A DNA stretch of 64,000 nt. Origin: an uncultured Candidatus Cloacimonadota bacterium. Lineage in GTDB: Bacteria > Cloacimonadota > Cloacimonadia > Cloacimonadales > Cloacimonadaceae. Shown here piece after piece: positions 58,607 through 64,000 of this stretch (its first letter is position 1; the number at the start of each line of letters is the position of its first letter). The stretch is from NCBI GenBank assembly GCA_964634275.1, contig CAZWIS010000003.1, positions 57,548 to 121,547 on the forward strand, written 5' to 3'. The position numbers and the translations under genes were made by a program. The notes beneath the pieces are model-generated. The model was not told where the DNA came from and did no database searches. It was given only the letters and a program-made list of their open reading frames with translations.

Positions 58607-59334
58607 TTCCCCCCCATGATTTTGTAAATACCATACAAAATCGAAAGTGGATGAGCAGGACAGCCAGGAATATACAAAACCGCTTTCTGATCACATAACC
58701 ATCTGCGATCCAATCGATTTCCATTCACAAACATTCCTCCACTTATAGAGCAGGTGCCGCATAAAATCAAAAACTTTGGGTCTGGTATCGCATCCCATGT
58801 ACTCCTAAGGGCTTCCTCCATGTTTATGCTGACTGGACCAGTCAATATCAAAGCATCTGCATGTCGGGGAGATGCTACAACCTCTATTCCATAACGCCCC
58901 ATATCAAAGTTTACATTGGAAGAAGCAGCCAGTTCCAGTTCGCAGGCATTACATCCTGCAGCTGAGACATTTCTGAGAGCAAAGGACTTCCTAAAGATGC
59001 TGGGTAATCTGAAAGTAATCGCATTTTGCCTGTAATCTGTCTGACCTGGTTTTATGATTAGTTTATCTCGTTCGTCTGCTGCCATCTTATAATCTGCAGA
59101 AAAGGTTACATGATCGGGAAAGGTTCTTTCACACATCCCGCAAAATATGCACTTTCCCATATCAAGTCCCTGCTTATCTATTGCATTTACAGGGCATACC
59201 TTTGATATCTCATCAAGATCTGCGTTTATATTTAGTAATGGCAAGCCTGGAAATGATTCGTTAATCGCCACATCAATTGGATTTGCTATAGCCTGATAAC
59301 CATGAGCAAAACGCGCTTTAATCAATTCAAACAT
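58603..59334 (-). CDS. Fusion of a degenerate ferredoxin-like domain with a NuoB/HycG-type small subunit
   Basis: N-terminal part: ...KVCPVNAI then CIFCGMCERTFP. C-terminal part: GCNACELE, ILTGP, CGTCSISGG and PGCP, which is the proximal [4Fe-4S] ligand pattern. Confidence 0.8.
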   Translation of the reverse strand: MFELIKARFAHGYQAIANPIDVAINESFPGLPLLNINADLDEISKVCPVNAIDKQGLDMGKCIFCGMCERTFPDHVTFSADYKMAADERDKLIIKPGQTDYRQNAITFRLPSIFRKSFALRNVSAAGCNACELELAASSNVNFDMGRYGIEVVASPRHADALILTGPVSINMEEALRSTWDAIPDPKFLILCGTCSISGGMFVNGNRLDRRWLCDQKAVLYIPGCPAHPLSILYGIYKIMGGK

Positions 59335-60767
59335 TATAGATCACTCCCGCAATATGACAGATCGAAGCTTTTGTTACACAATGGAAAATCCGAAATCCCT
59401 TCTCCACGAACAGCCAGGGCCAAAGCAAACCAGTTATGAAGCGATGGGTCTATGACACGATAGGATTCAACTTTGCCCAGGTGATTTGTATGGCATACAT
59501 GGAGCAATCTGCCTCTATGACTTTCGACGATTGATAATGCCAACCGGTTGGGCTGAACTTCTTGTATTGCCATATTCAATGACGAGTCCATATCTACCTG
59601 CGGTAACCATCCCAAGATCATATTGATCGATTGTTCTATCTCTGCCGCCCTAAGCCATGCTCTGGCAAAGACATCTCCGCTATTATGGATAATTGGTTCA
59701 AACAGAAACTTTTCATCAATCGGGAAGTCTTTTCTGGCATCAATCATGTGGCCAGAGGATTTTGCAACAATACCAGTAAACCCGAGTCTTTGCACATCAG
59801 TTGGCGTTATAACACCTGTGTTATCGAATCTGGAAAGAACACTGGCAGTCGATAGCATTCCTGCGGTGGTATTCCTGATCCTGACCTGGCATTGCGACAA
59901 TGTGTCTGTAAATACTTCTATCTGCTTCTGGTCCAGAGAATAGTTCACTCCCCCTGGACACAACCAGCGTTTGCCAAACCGGCTTCCACAGATTGAAAGA
60001 GTGCTGTTTATGATCATTGTCCTCAAAGCCGCAAAGAGATTCTGACCCATTATGTATGCAACGTCTCCAGCTAATGCTGACAACACTGATAAATGCATCG
60101 CTATTCTTTCCATTTCCAAGGCTATCAAACGTGTTATAGTTTGGTTTGGGTGACAGTCAGTAAGGGCTTCTACAACGAGACAATATGCAAGGCCATGAGC
60201 AATTGCTGAATCTCCGGCAATTGATTCTGCCAAACATATCTTGGATCGGATATCCCCCTCCATCATCATCCGTATTACTCCACGATGCTGATATCCCAAT
60301 TGTATTTCTAAATGCTCGATCTTTTCCCCCCGACATATAAATCGGAAGTGCCCAGGCTCAATTACTCCCGCATGAACAGGACCCACGCCTACTTCATGTA
60401 ATGATCTGGAATGGCTCTCCAAAAAGGGATATCTATACATTTGACCAGCAACTTCTCCAGGAAAACGCAGAGCTTTGAGCCAAGGATGCCCAACTGGTAA
60501 TAACCCATATTCCTCGTACAACTCACGTTCAAAGATGTGAAATGCTGGAAAATCTGGAGTAAGAGCATCGTAACGTCCACAATCAGGAAATGCACATAGA
60601 AGGACTTCTGTCTCAGAATTGAAAGATAAAATACATATAATTTGCCGATTATTCTCTCCAAACAGACACAATGGGTGATATCCTTTTGCACAGAGTAATC
60701 GAATCCGCTCGAAGAACTTAGTACTCTCCATGAGCATTGGCAGAGATAATAACATAGGACTATTCAT
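59334..60767 (-). CDS. NuoC+NuoD/HycE-like large subunit lacking the NiFe-binding cysteines
   Basis: GPVHAGVIEPGHFRF is diagnostic of group-4 large subunits and NuoD. The L1 position reads LAESIAGDSAIAHGLAY instead of ER-CG-C---H. The C-terminus reads FDLSYCGSDL instead of DPC--C--R/H. Confidence 0.85.
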   Translation of the reverse strand: MNSPMLLSLPMLMESTKFFERIRLLCAKGYHPLCLFGENNRQIICILSFNSETEVLLCAFPDCGRYDALTPDFPAFHIFERELYEEYGLLPVGHPWLKALRFPGEVAGQMYRYPFLESHSRSLHEVGVGPVHAGVIEPGHFRFICRGEKIEHLEIQLGYQHRGVIRMMMEGDIRSKICLAESIAGDSAIAHGLAYCLVVEALTDCHPNQTITRLIALEMERIAMHLSVLSALAGDVAYIMGQNLFAALRTMIINSTLSICGSRFGKRWLCPGGVNYSLDQKQIEVFTDTLSQCQVRIRNTTAGMLSTASVLSRFDNTGVITPTDVQRLGFTGIVAKSSGHMIDARKDFPIDEKFLFEPIIHNSGDVFARAWLRAAEIEQSINMILGWLPQVDMDSSLNMAIQEVQPNRLALSIVESHRGRLLHVCHTNHLGKVESYRVIDPSLHNWFALALAVRGEGISDFPLCNKSFDLSYCGSDL

Positions 60768-60948
60768 CGTACATACAAACAGAAACTTCCATTTTATTGT
60801 CGATCGCCGATATTGCTTTATATCAGGCAGTTATGAGCATCACAGCGTCGACTTATTGACGATCTCCGCAATATCATGTTTTTGTAAAGTATTTTCGAAT
60901 AATACCATGGAAAGGAATGTGGTTTACAGCCCCTATTTAAACTCTCAG

Positions 60949-60977
60949 ATAATAGACAAAAACCTATTATCAATCAA
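60949..60977 (-). promoter_or_regulatory. Candidate promoter of the hydrogenase-like operon
   Basis: Minus strand: TTGATT (60977-72), 17 nt, TATTAT (60954-49), about 180 nt upstream of the first ATG. Confidence 0.25.
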
Positions 60978-61014
60978 GACTGAATACTTTATGGATTGTA
61001 TAGTAACGAGAAGA

Positions 61015-62397
61015 CTATTTGCGAAACTTGCGAATAAACTCCTCTACCTCAGGTATTCCTCCCTGAAACACCAGATATCCATTGTATGGTTCTCCGTCTG
61101 TGATTTCTCCGGCAATTGGTTTCAGCATCAGATTGCGTACAACTTCCGGGTCACTACTTTGTCCCAGAGCCCATCCCAGTTTGATGTATGCTACTTCAGG
61201 TAGCATATTTTCAGATGGCACTATCCCCATACTCATCAAGTCCCTGCCAGTATCATAAACAAACATGTGTACAAACCCCCAAAGAGTTTGAACGGTCATG
61301 TAGATATGCACTCCTTTTTCCACAGCTCTTTTAATGGCTGGATAAACTGGCTTGTTAATATGACCCAGCCCAGTACCGGCAATAACGATTCCCTTGTAGC
61401 CATTATCGGTCAGAGAATCGATGATATCCGGATGCATATTGGGATAGTAATACACTATGGCAACCCGTTCTTCAAAGAAAGGATAAACAGACACATGATT
61501 ATCCTTTCTTCTGCGATGATAATCTTGTTTCAGGGGTTCTACTTTCTCCCTTGTTACAGTAGCCACAGGAATGTCACCTATTGTCCTGAATGTAGAACGA
61601 TACGAAGAGTGCATCTTTCGCACTCTGGTTCCCTGATGTAGAAGGCCATAATCATCGCTGGTAGGACCAAACATACAAACCATTACTTCTGCTATGTCGC
61701 TATGCCCTGCTGCTGTGGCTGCATGCATCAAATTTAACGCAGCATCGGATGATGGCCTGTCTGATGATCTTTGTGAACCAACCATAACCACAGGAACCGG
61801 CAAATCTTGAAGCATAAAAGACAATGCTGCTGCAGTGTGATGCATCGTATCGGTTCCATGCCCGATAATAATACCATCCACACCTTTTTTTATCTCTTCC
61901 CCAATTGATATTGCCAGCTTTTTGTATTGTTCCGGACCCATGTTTTCGGAAAAAACCGCAAAGAGCTTTTCGGTTTCAAGATTACAAATGTCTGCCAGTT
62001 CAGGTACAGCTCCATACAGCTCACCTGGAGAAAACGCAGGTATAACAGCTCCAGTACGATAGTCCAATCTTGAAGCTATTGTCCCACCAGTCCCGAACAA
62101 CTTCACTTTGGGCAAATTTGGAGTTTTGGGGAATTCACGCTCGGGAATCTTGTAATGAGCTTCCTTAAAACCAGTTTCAGTCATACTGATTATCGTATCA
62201 ATATCAATACCAACGTTGTAACCTGTGATGAGTTTAATCACAATATGCCGGTCGTCGTCATTCTCGGATCTGGGAAGGATGATACCCTGGAATTTTCCTC
62301 TGCTGGTTTCGATCGTTGTATCACCCCATACTCTTACATGAAAGGATCTTAGTATGTCCAGGGCAGCCCCTTTGTAACCTTTGAATAGATCAAGCAT
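61015..62397 (-). CDS. gatD: Glu-tRNA(Gln) amidotransferase subunit D (archaeal type)
   Basis: GatD-specific N-terminal domain (GKFQGIILPRSE...IVIKLITGYNVGI). Asparaginase signature LFGTGGTIASRLDYRTGAV and HGTDTM. 460 aa. Confidence 0.85.
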   Translation of the reverse strand: MLDLFKGYKGAALDILRSFHVRVWGDTTIETSRGKFQGIILPRSENDDDRHIVIKLITGYNVGIDIDTIISMTETGFKEAHYKIPEREFPKTPNLPKVKLFGTGGTIASRLDYRTGAVIPAFSPGELYGAVPELADICNLETEKLFAVFSENMGPEQYKKLAISIGEEIKKGVDGIIIGHGTDTMHHTAAALSFMLQDLPVPVVMVGSQRSSDRPSSDAALNLMHAATAAGHSDIAEVMVCMFGPTSDDYGLLHQGTRVRKMHSSYRSTFRTIGDIPVATVTREKVEPLKQDYHRRRKDNHVSVYPFFEERVAIVYYYPNMHPDIIDSLTDNGYKGIVIAGTGLGHINKPVYPAIKRAVEKGVHIYMTVQTLWGFVHMFVYDTGRDLMSMGIVPSENMLPEVAYIKLGWALGQSSDPEVVRNLMLKPIAGEITDGEPYNGYLVFQGGIPEVEEFIRKFRK

Positions 62398-64000
62398 GCT
62401 GCACCTCGTTTTCGATATATTCGGTAACTCTGTTTCTTAGCTGTTTCAATGATATGTTTCCCAAAGCCGGTTTTCGCAGTCTTCCCATAATCCACTTTAT
62501 CTCCGCTTCCGGCATTATTGCGGATTTGTGCTTTATCTTCATAAACATTTCATGGAGCAGCGGGATTTGATTGTAAATTGTGTCCGCATCACTTGGAATG
62601 TATCCTACAAGCTGAAGTATCGAAGAAAACACCATATTAGGGTTATGGTATAGAATCTTCACCATATCTGGCATAATGTCCAAAGTCAGTTTCTTTTTGT
62701 TTAGATAGCGGAAAAGATCAGCGATTCTATCATATCCAAATGGTAAGGCTTTATCTCCCTGAAGTGATTTTATCATATGAGCATATAACAGACACAAGTA
62801 TCGAGGATCTGCGTTGATTTCCCCAGAAATACTCTCAATAGCAGGCAACATATTGAAACGTAATAAGTAGGCATAGGCATCAAGAGGAACGTTCCATGCC
62901 TTTAATTGTTCCATTCTGTATAGTGGATCTGCGGGTAAGTCTTTTCTGGCTGATTCAATCATTTCTTCCAAAATCGGAATTGGAGCAGAATCTGTATCGG
63001 GATACATTCTATCTGCCCCAGGTAGCACTCTTTCAAAAATGCTGGTTCCATTACTGAGTGATTTACGGGTTTCATTTGGTACTCCATCAAAAGCCATCAT
63101 ACATCTTTCATGAATTGTTTCGATAGCAGTAACGAGATCTTCTTCTGGAGTCCATAGCAATATCTGGGCATCGTTTTCTTTCGACTTCAGGATTGTTCTA
63201 AGGGTTTCTATGTCTTTCTCTGTGAGATTGGGGACAAGTTCTTCACTGTGATACATATTAGGATGCTCCAAACATGCGATCACCTTCAGGCGTTGGGACA
63301 ATTCGTCTGCAAAGCATTGCCCAGGCTGGGTAAAATGTGAAAGTATGTTTTTATACTCGGGGAGGTTTACACCCACAATTTTCCATGATTCAGAGCTGAT
63401 TTTGCGCAATAACGGAATATGTCCCCAGTCTTCTGTATGAAGTTCCTGCCAATGGAGATTCCATTTCTTTGGTTTTGTTACCCGTTTCGTCATGGCATCT
63501 TTAATCATCAAAAGAGCTTTTTGACGAAATGCTTCGTTATGAGTCAATTTTGGAATCCATGAGATATGGGCTACACCCTTTATTTCTACTCTGGTACCTC
63601 CTTCGATGCTGACATTTACATCCTGACGTGCAGCACCAATCCCAGAACGAGCTACTCCAGAGCACCTGTTCAGATACCTTATATAGTAACCTGCTTCAGC
63701 AGCTTCAGAGGGATTCGACATATCTGGATAAGTTACTACCTCACAAAGAGGCATACCCAGCCTGTCTCCAAAATATACTCTACGGTGCCTATAATCCGAT
63801 ACTTCCCTGCAACTATCTTCCTCTACGCTGAATTGAATGATCCGGATAGTCTTGTTTGATATGGGAATTTCGCCTTCGATGCCCAGGATTGTAGTCCGCT
63901 GAAATCCAGTCGGAATACTGCCATCCAGATATTGCTTTCTCGTAATATGTAGCTCTCCGACGATATTCATCTTGAGTAACAGCGCTATTTTCATCGCATG
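62390..64000 (-). CDS. gatE: Glu-tRNA(Gln) amidotransferase subunit E (archaeal type), N-terminus beyond the right edge
   Basis: GELHITRKQYLDGSIPTGFQRTTIL, LGMPLCEVVTYPD and GIGAARQDVNVSIEGGTRVEIKGV. The reading frame stays open to position 64000, and GatE proteins are normally about 100 aa longer at the N-terminus. Confidence 0.85.
   Translation of the reverse strand, partial: HAMKIALLLKMNIVGELHITRKQYLDGSIPTGFQRTTILGIEGEIPISNKTIRIIQFSVEEDSCREVSDYRHRRVYFGDRLGMPLCEVVTYPDMSNPSEAAEAGYYIRYLNRCSGVARSGIGAARQDVNVSIEGGTRVEIKGVAHISWIPKLTHNEAFRQKALLMIKDAMTKRVTKPKKWNLHWQELHTEDWGHIPLLRKISSESWKIVGVNLPEYKNILSHFTQPGQCFADELSQRLKVIACLEHPNMYHSEELVPNLTEKDIETLRTILKSKENDAQILLWTPEEDLVTAIETIHERCMMAFDGVPNETRKSLSNGTSIFERVLPGADRMYPDTDSAPIPILEEMIESARKDLPADPLYRMEQLKAWNVPLDAYAYLLRFNMLPAIESISGEINADPRYLCLLYAHMIKSLQGDKALPFGYDRIADLFRYLNKKKLTLDIMPDMVKILYHNPNMVFSSILQLVGYIPSDADTIYNQIPLLHEMFMKIKHKSAIMPEAEIKWIMGRLRKPALGNISLKQLRNRVTEYIENEVQHA

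Follow-up and report, generated by a model that had tools for sequence, protein, structure and literature searches.

A gatE-gatD pair of a bacterial GatDE branch, most likely an accessory source of Gln-tRNA beside GlnRS, in a Cloacimonadales genome

Introduction

Why would a bacterium that has a glutaminyl-tRNA synthetase (GlnRS) keep a tRNA-dependent amidotransferase of the archaeal type? The question is raised by two genes, gatE and gatD, at the end of a 64,000-nucleotide stretch of DNA (hereafter the window) from a metagenome-assembled genome (MAG) of the bacterial order Cloacimonadales, 2.85 Mb in size and 97% complete. The original prediction, made from the letters of the window, had recognized the pair as the two subunits of the archaea-specific Glu-tRNA(Gln) amidotransferase, bacteria using GatCAB instead, and had suggested an ancient or recent inter-domain transfer and possibly an unusual route to Gln-tRNA, or a recruited function, in this lineage. 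Reviews call GatDE exclusive to archaea, and still did so up to 2022 (PMC2811023, PMC9499178). Reviews treat the enzyme as a signature of archaea, and it figures in arguments on how glutamine entered the genetic code and on the archaeal lack of GlnRS.

The gene pair described here is a new bacterial member of this known enzyme family. It appears to be an intact and native operon of a bacterial GatDE branch and, with a probability that we put at about 0.6, it serves as an accessory system that backs up or repairs the Gln-tRNA supply beside GlnRS.

Results and Discussion

Both genes encode complete GatDE subunits

The identification of the two genes was borne out, both products scoring above the cut-offs of the NCBI equivalog hidden Markov models and keeping their catalytic motifs. 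GatD reaches 513.6 bits on TIGR02153 (gatD_arch; cut-off 324) and 509.6 bits on PRK04183 (cut-off 310), and it contains the Pfam domains PF18195 (GatD_N, 46 bits), PF00710 (Asparaginase, 193.9 bits) and PF17763 (Asparaginase_C, 117.4 bits). It aligns end to end with PDB entry 2d6f_A (408 bits), and its motifs TGGT(IAS), HGTDT(M) and VRKMH align with their equivalents in 2d6f_A and 1zq1_A. The catalytic role of the TGGT threonine, the threonine and aspartate of HGTDT and the downstream lysine is established for asparaginases and GatD. The motifs on which the pair had first been recognized (TGGTIAS, GELHITRK and RQDVNVSIEGGTRVEIKGV) were all found in the translated open reading frames.

The window holds the last 536 residues of GatE, a piece that by itself scores 273 bits on the GatE equivalog, under the cut-off of 319.55. 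The full-length protein of 661 residues scores 385.6 bits on this model (gatE_arch, of the TIGR00134 / PRK04028 family) and 101 bits on the GatB model TIGR00133. It matches 2d6f_C with 298 bits, colinearly across residues 31-652, and in a profile alignment it is colinear with both 2d6f_C and 1zq1_C along its entire length. The cradle (PF02934, 164 bits) keeps the metal, ATP and acceptor-end motifs. Conserved motifs are GLEVHQQL, CTYETDDTPPF, RKQYLDGSIPTGFQRT, EEDSCRE, DRLGMPL, RQDVNVS, EIKGV, ETR and RMYPDTD; the catalytic ones are invariant in 25 bacterial and 7 archaeal GatE and in a set of 47 aligned sequences. A loss of catalytic residues from the GatE-like frame, considered at the outset, was not seen on alignment. 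An AlphaFold model (predicted local distance difference test (pLDDT) 89, predicted template modelling score 0.80) has as its best structural matches GatE in 1zq1_C and 2d6f, with template modelling scores of 0.80-0.83, followed by full-length GatB.

In bacterial GatE, about 30 additional N-terminal residues stand ahead of GLEVHQQL, with the consensus ..VGYVxRxxAT..Y...GF. The alignment with the archaeal GatE of known structure begins at query residue 27-31 and leaves this extension uncovered; the extension is modelled as two high-confidence helices. The architecture varies elsewhere in bacteria. Two MAGs, one of Phycisphaeraceae and one of Myxococcales (L093 and L110), have GatE proteins that stop before the tail motif, the tail domain being truncated or missing, and at locus L092 a single protein of 943 residues joins a GatE cradle to a full GatD, on a bacterial-looking contig where its neighbours are a Ser/Thr kinase-TPR and a PIN-TRAM protein.

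The catalytic parts are held constant while the tRNA-reading parts have drifted

In comparisons with Cloacimonadota relatives, nonsynonymous divergence (dN) was 0.07-0.13 for gatD and 0.27-0.35 for gatE, synonymous divergence (dS) being saturated for both. These values point to strong purifying selection on the pair. Within the order, mean identity is 84% for GatD, 65% for GatE and 56% for glutamyl-tRNA synthetase (GluRS). The divergence of GatE is unevenly spread along the protein: the catalytic cradle is 72-78% identical among bacteria and 39-43% identical to archaea, whereas the corresponding figures are 44% and 21% for the insertion, 35% and 16% for the helical region, and 35% and 12% for the tail. 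With GatD and the cradle so strongly conserved and the insertion, helical region and tail so divergent, the chemistry seems to have been held constant while the parts of GatE that read the tRNA body drifted.

Between two species of the genus to which the window belongs (the window compared with locus L222), GatD is 90% and GatE 67% identical, and flanking housekeeping genes are 55-88% identical. A recent spread between phyla, which a GatD identity of 75-78% across phyla might have implied, was dropped as an explanation. That level of identity is due to the slow evolution of GatD, since GatE identity from phylum to phylum is just 52-55%, with saturated dS.

The pair appears to belong to the genome in which it was found

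The composition of the pair was compared with that of its genome, as had been proposed, and the two match: GC content is 0.425 against 0.424, and in tetranucleotide distance the pair ranks at the 22nd percentile of 802 chunks of the genome. The closest GatD proteins are from Cloacimonadota (84-91% identity), in other Cloacimonadales that include two closed chromosomes (OY759316.1 and OY762964.1), and the pair is present in 14 other Cloacimonadales genomes. This indirect evidence favours gatDE being native to this genome.

GatDE is widespread in bacteria

How far does the pair extend beyond this lineage? A scan for GatD over one genome per species returned at least 590 confirmed bacterial genome matches. 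The best 80 matches listed were all bacterial MAGs, at 74-89% identity, from Cloacimonadota, Bacteroidales, Lentimicrobiaceae, Marinilabiliales, Zixibacteria and Ignavibacteria. A second scan, with a representative 58% identical as the query, added about 40 further matches, from Planctomycetota, Krumholzibacteriota, KSB1, Gemmatimonadota, Myxococcota, Calditrichota, Aminicenantes/Acidobacteriota and an Odoribacter. With over 600 bacterial species genomes in more than 10 phyla having the pair, GatDE is not peculiar to this lineage. The statement that GatDE is archaea-specific stands as a description of what reviews say; as a description of genomes it does not. Such bacterial genes already bear their names in databases and are undiscussed in the searchable literature: a search of the literature on bacterial GatDE found no paper describing it. 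Consequently, of the alternative foreseen in the original prediction, a broad bacterial clade with a documented distribution, we find the broad clade and no documenting paper.

Of 80 related loci, 74-76 have gatE immediately upstream of gatD. In the 80 clustered loci we found no conserved partner or tRNA gene beside the cassette, and no tRNA(Gln); the flanks vary by lineage, and the sole invariant neighbour of each gene is its partner.

Bacterial GatD is nested within archaeal diversity

We placed the window copy in a GatD tree (IQ-TREE, LG+C20) that included 39 bacterial sequences and was rooted on asparaginases, a distant outgroup. All 39 bacterial GatD formed a single clade (Shimodaira-Hasegawa-like approximate likelihood ratio 99), the window copy among them. 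Its sister, with a support of 96, is a group holding Sigynarchaeum and a Promethearchaeota MAG, and the Bathyarchaeia, Nitrososphaerota and euryarchaeal lineages branch outside this grouping. With this root, the bacterial clade appears nested within archaeal diversity. The nearest archaeal GatD, from Asgard archaea, is 46-47% identical to that of the window. GatE independently supports a relationship with Sigynarchaeum: among the 25 bacterial and 7 archaeal GatE, the motif CTYExDDTPPF and a loop longer by one residue, RSTGKVR(R/T)G, are common to bacteria and Sigynarchaeum only. The RSTGKVR loop is positioned beside the first tRNA base pair (PMC2811023). Given the sister relationship of the GatD clade and the signatures that GatE has in common with Sigynarchaeum, the simplest reading would be a single old transfer of the whole gatDE pair from an Asgard-related archaeon to bacteria. 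The inter-domain transfer that had been suggested is thus retained in its ancient form; a recent one is contradicted by the saturated dS among Cloacimonadota copies.

The GatD of one MAG labelled Thermoplasmatota (L132 / G053) falls in the bacterial clade. Other contigs of this MAG encode a GlnRS (725 bits) and an archaeal-type GluRS, and the bin is probably mixed; were it genuine, it would represent an archaeon possessing GlnRS.

GatDE is an optional companion of GlnRS in Cloacimonadales

Among 31 Cloacimonadales genomes, GatD and GatE occur together in 15, GlnRS in at least 29, asparaginyl-tRNA synthetase (AsnRS) in all 31, glutamine synthetase (GS domain) in 28, the window genome included, and GatB in none. 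The search for these synthetases and for GatB, which the original prediction had proposed, found in the window genome a GlnRS (778 bits) and an AsnRS, beside glutamine synthetase and one bacterial GluRS, so that there is no need to invoke an unusual route to Gln-tRNA. Because GlnRS is present, GatDE would not be the main supplier of Gln-tRNA in this genome. GlnRS went undetected in two GatDE-positive genomes, G025 and G030, both fragmented. Loss of GlnRS was rejected as an account of these two in favour of a probable assembly gap: the GluRS of G025 ends a 5.8-kb contig, GlnRS adjoins GluRS in relatives, and GluRS too is missing from G030.

The presence of the pair varies inside the genera g6 and g9, and GatDE-positive genomes are larger (3.06 vs 2.41 Mb, p = 0.025). 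In the same-genus genome G001, the genes on either side of gatE-gatD have their homologues on two other contigs of the window genome (G000). Thus, in Cloacimonadales, gatDE is optional, has been repeatedly lost and has changed its genomic position; after the transfer, bacteria have many times retained it, lost it or relocated it. Purely vertical inheritance inside the order was examined and found not to be clean, since GatE identity does not track GluRS identity across ten GatDE-positive genomes (rho 0.14) and the closest GatE is common to G015, G020 and G027, which represent three families.

Outside the order, GlnRS was found in 18 and GatB in 7 of 23 GatDE-positive bacterial genomes. Both were absent only from G043 and G047, which are partial assemblies of 1.7 Mb; no complete genome lacked both. 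Two further accounts of the pair were set aside. Compensation for a missing glutamine synthetase is rejected by the GS domain in 28/31 genomes, this one included, and substitution of GatDE for GatCAB in making Asn-tRNA is unlikely, AsnRS being universal in the order.

A possible link to the acceptor end of tRNA(Gln)

The known discrimination rule of GatDE concerns the tRNA's first base pair (PMC2811023). In this order tRNA(Glu) has G1-C72 and tRNA(Gln) a weak first pair, so the rule could still work here. The archaeal GatDE identity pair A1-U72 is present in the tRNA(Gln)(UUG) of the GatDE-positive genomes G015 (L256) and G020 (L257) and of the likewise GatDE-positive Ignavibacteria genome G044 (L269). 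A73 replaces the bacterial discriminator G73 in tRNA(Gln) of the GatDE-positive genomes G022, G025 (UUG only), G029, G030 and G034, and in one of 14 GatDE-negative Cloacimonadales (G019). Acceptor-end variants were counted in 6/14 GatDE-positive and 1/14 GatDE-negative genomes, a difference with p = 0.08 when kinship is ignored.

Across 185,579 species genomes, a pattern for bacterial-style tRNA(Gln)(UUG) starting with A1 gave 96 matches (L284-L379), about 92 of which were verified as A1-U72 with G73. Thirty-nine are from Thermodesulfobacteriota, including Desulfatibacillum alkenivorans DSM 16219, and others from Hydrogenedentota, Cloacimonadota, Ignavibacteriota, Myxococcota and more. Four of the 96 fall within a partial list of 125 GatDE-positive genomes, where 0.065 would be expected; two of the four perhaps come from a single lineage, and the number is inflated by shared taxonomy. 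The co-occurrence of the rare A1-U72 tRNA(Gln) with GatDE is for this reason best taken as a lead. An extra tRNA(Gln) gene in GatDE-positive genomes was not seen in the one pair compared, G034 (positive) and G011 (negative), each having one UUG and one CUG gene.

A connection with tRNA(Gln) charging is also seen in gene order. At a Gemmatimonadales locus (L105), a divergent gltX, gatE, gatD and glnS adjoin one another, the GlnRS being of the YqeY-fusion type. This is the sole locus with synthetase neighbours among 125 gatDE loci.

It is conceivable, if rather doubtful, that GatDE forms a second, GlnRS-independent supply line of Gln-tRNA(Gln) that co-evolves with the tRNA(Gln) acceptor end, and that in some bacteria the UUG isoacceptor with A1-U72 or A73 is served mainly by GatDE. 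If so, these bacteria would have partly re-created the archaeal-type identity set of tRNA(Gln), inherited from the Asgard-related donor.

An accessory role beside GlnRS and the evidence that weighs against it

On the model of the homologous archaeal enzyme of known structure, GatD, an amidase of the asparaginase type, would free ammonia from glutamine or asparagine, and GatE would phosphorylate the side-chain carboxyl of the glutamate esterified to tRNA(Gln) and then amidate it, with the net conversion of Glu-tRNA(Gln) to Gln-tRNA(Gln). Such an enzyme could rescue tRNA(Gln) mischarged by the single GluRS or, alternatively, maintain the Gln-tRNA supply when GlnRS or free glutamine is limiting. 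Substrate, amide donor and physiological role are thus predicted from the sequences and their relatives.

Several observations weigh against this backup or repair role. The only GluRS is of the bacterial type and has an arginine at the position of Arg358 of Thermus thermophilus, the residue of a discriminating GluRS, and no second or archaeal-type GluRS was found in the 31 Cloacimonadales genomes; there is thus no evident source of the Glu-tRNA(Gln) substrate in these sequences. The idea that an archaeal or second GluRS had been transferred together with gatDE found no support, each genome having GlnRS plus one bacterial GluRS only. The residue at this position is R, Y or Q among relatives, and a GluRS of the non-discriminating type did not correlate with the pair, the equivalent arginine being present in 7/12 positives and 11/15 negatives. 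In G001, of the same genus, tRNA(Gln) has U1-A72 where the archaeal pair would be A1-U72. No tRNA(Gln) was found in the window's own assembly with ARAGORN and a tRNA(Gln) BLAST query, so that statements on the tRNA(Gln) of this organism rest on relatives; ARAGORN counted 34 tRNA genes there, those for Gln, His, Ile, Trp and Tyr missing, a provisional count because it was run without -l, a setting that skipped tRNAs on short loci. Finally, the insertion, helical region and tail of GatE, which read the tRNA, share just 12-21% identity with their archaeal counterparts, and the Pfam models GAD and GatB_Yqey give no signal in the window GatE even at E <= 10. These models give 77 and 32 bits (GAD) and 97 and 70 bits (GatB_Yqey) on two archaeal GatE, those of Methanothermobacter thermautotrophicus and Sigynarchaeum. 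Together, the divergence and the silence of the models mean that the tRNA specificity of bacterial GatE may have changed. An insertion (GAD) resembling aspartyl-tRNA synthetase (AspRS) is what distinguishes GatE from GatB, and a helical region with a YqeY-like tail reads the D-loop of the tRNA. Although the two Pfam models are blind to them, the insertion and C-terminal domains appear to be physically retained in the structural prediction. The inserted alpha/beta domain (residues ~291-415) is modelled with pLDDT >90, its matches to AspRS folds being weak, and the C-terminus is all-helical, of the right length and confidently modelled, with about 650 columns aligned with full-length GatB (3ip4_B).

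Other explanations of the pair

A changed specificity would be expected if GatDE had acquired a new function, the amidase and cradle chemistry being kept for another acceptor, such as Asp-tRNA(Asn), just a single tRNA(Gln) isoacceptor, or some tRNA-dependent step that lies outside translation. Wherever the pair occurs, GlnRS and/or GatCAB accompanies it; strong divergence has affected the insertion, helical and tail domains around a retained cradle, some bacterial GatE (such as L093 and L110) do without the tail, and GatD is unusually conserved, with a mean identity of 84% where GluRS from these genomes has 56%. We nevertheless consider such a change of function, the main rival reading, unlikely. 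AsnRS is present in all 31 genomes of the order, the 80 clustered loci have no conserved neighbour outside translation, and glnS and gltX are the sole functional linkage found among 125 loci. The tail, moreover, retains an xxAxGN core where the archaeal motif stands, and in its full-length colinearity as in its predicted fold the protein is a GatE. Redundancy with GlnRS, together with loss from about half of the order, would also be understandable if the pair were a decaying relic that has no present function. This is very improbable in view of the intact frames, the invariant catalytic motifs and the strong purifying selection.

The remaining explanations concern how the pair came to be where it is. 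Its position at the extreme end of its contig, with the gatE start 120 bp from the end, invites the suspicion of an assembly or binning artefact, in which an archaeal or otherwise foreign fragment was attached to a Cloacimonadota contig. Such an artefact is scarcely credible given a composition equal to that of the genome, close orthologues in 14 other Cloacimonadales genomes, the two closed chromosomes among them, and a GatD that clusters with Cloacimonadota in trees. A recent direct acquisition from archaea by this lineage might account for the patchy presence even inside g6 and g9 and for the different genomic positions in the window genome and G001. It is, however, extremely unlikely, because the nearest relatives of the GatD are bacterial (74-91% identity, against ~47% for the nearest archaeal one), the composition is entirely host-like, dS is saturated among the Cloacimonadota copies, and the window copy lies deep within the bacterial clade.

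Comparison with known amidotransferases

The archaeal GatDE of M. thermautotrophicus (2D6F, with tRNA(Gln)) and Pyrococcus abyssi (1ZQ1) resemble the present pair in having two subunits, in the GatD N-domain and asparaginase fold with the Thr, Thr-Asp and Lys motifs, and in a full-length colinear GatE that has an inserted domain and every catalytic motif in its cradle. They differ from it in their hosts: archaea never possess GlnRS (PMC9499178), whereas the present host is a bacterium with GlnRS and AsnRS, and GatDE is not its sole route to Gln-tRNA. The host GluRS is bacterial, with arginine at the discriminating position, and the same-genus tRNA(Gln) begins with U1-A72 instead of A1-U72. GatE itself differs by its N-terminal extension and by the low identity of its insertion, helical region and tail. 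The Sigynarchaeota/Promethearchaeota enzymes are closer, their GatD being sister to all bacterial GatD and their GatE having in common with bacteria the CTYExDDTPPF motif and the longer RSTGKVRRG loop; yet Asgard GatE scores on GAD and GatB_Yqey, unlike that of the window, and Asgard GatD keeps its distance at 46-47% identity.

GatCAB and GatDE carry out the same reaction chemistry and use a weak first base pair and the D-loop as identity elements (PMC2811023), and the cradle is common to GatB and GatE. The amidase of GatCAB, in contrast, is GatA, an amidase-signature enzyme, and GatDE lacks a GatC. None of the 31 Cloacimonadales has GatB, yet it stands beside GatDE in 7 of the 23 other GatDE-positive bacteria. 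Deinococcus, Thermus and Bdellovibrio have GlnRS and AsnRS together with GatCAB (PMC4206432) and so offer a parallel for an amidotransferase retained despite the matching synthetases. Their GatCAB, unlike the present GatDE, is accounted for by a tRNA-dependent synthesis of asparagine that involves a second AspRS. Since only one AspRS, of the bacterial type, was found here, and glutamine synthetase is present, no explanation of this kind is yet applicable.

A large bacterial GatDE clade, with Asgard sequences as its sister group and with GlnRS or GatCAB present alongside it, weakens the archaea-only premise, and it amounts to a natural experiment on the redundancy of direct and indirect aminoacylation. 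The window itself adds one more well-characterised instance; the interest lies in the clade and in the tRNA(Gln) link, not in this copy. What is added here is the optional presence and changeable position of the pair within one bacterial order, and a testable connection to the rare A1-U72 tRNA(Gln) genes.

Arrangement of the locus and additional observations

The coordinates of the genes and other features are collected in Table 1. The overlap of the two genes and their distance from the Ehr-like operon agree with what had been noted at first, and the overlap suggests that gatE and gatD may be translationally coupled. In the spacer downstream of gatD, a search for an intrinsic terminator found none, and promoter-like sites were at chance level; the gene on the far side of the spacer is NuoD-like. 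The bacterial character of the surroundings was likewise upheld for rpsB-tsf-pyrH-frr, all four of which score over their cut-offs, rpsB and pyrH being of the bacterial type.

Table 1. Coordinates of the gatE-gatD locus and of other features named in the text (window coordinates unless a genome and contig or a locus is given)
Feature	Position	Strand	Remarks
gatD, amidase subunit, 460 residues	61015..62397	-	GatD N-domain plus asparaginase-type N and C domains
gatE, kinase/transamidase subunit	62390..64000	-	residues 126-661 inside the window; start codon 375 nt past the window end, at G000:C3:121922
gatE, complete, 661 residues	G000:C3:119937-121922	-	start 120 bp from the end of contig C3
gatE/gatD overlap, 8 nt	62390..62397	-	gatE stop on gatD start; from open reading frame coordinates
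Spacer, 247 bp	60768..61014	-	from gatD to the first gene of the Ehr-like operon
NuoD-like gene	59334-60767		spacer-side neighbour of gatD
GatE N-terminal extension	L001:3367-3456		past the window end
GlnRS of the window genome	G000:C2:78422-79999		778 bits
GatE cradle-GatD fusion, 943 residues	L092:9301-12132		one protein
AsnRS-like frame in G021	G021:C137:1655-2935		7 in-frame TGA codons

One relative, G021, contains a second AsnRS-like frame that is interrupted by the in-frame TGA codons listed in Table 1. The contamination of this genome is 6%, and the frame may come from a contaminant that recodes TGA.

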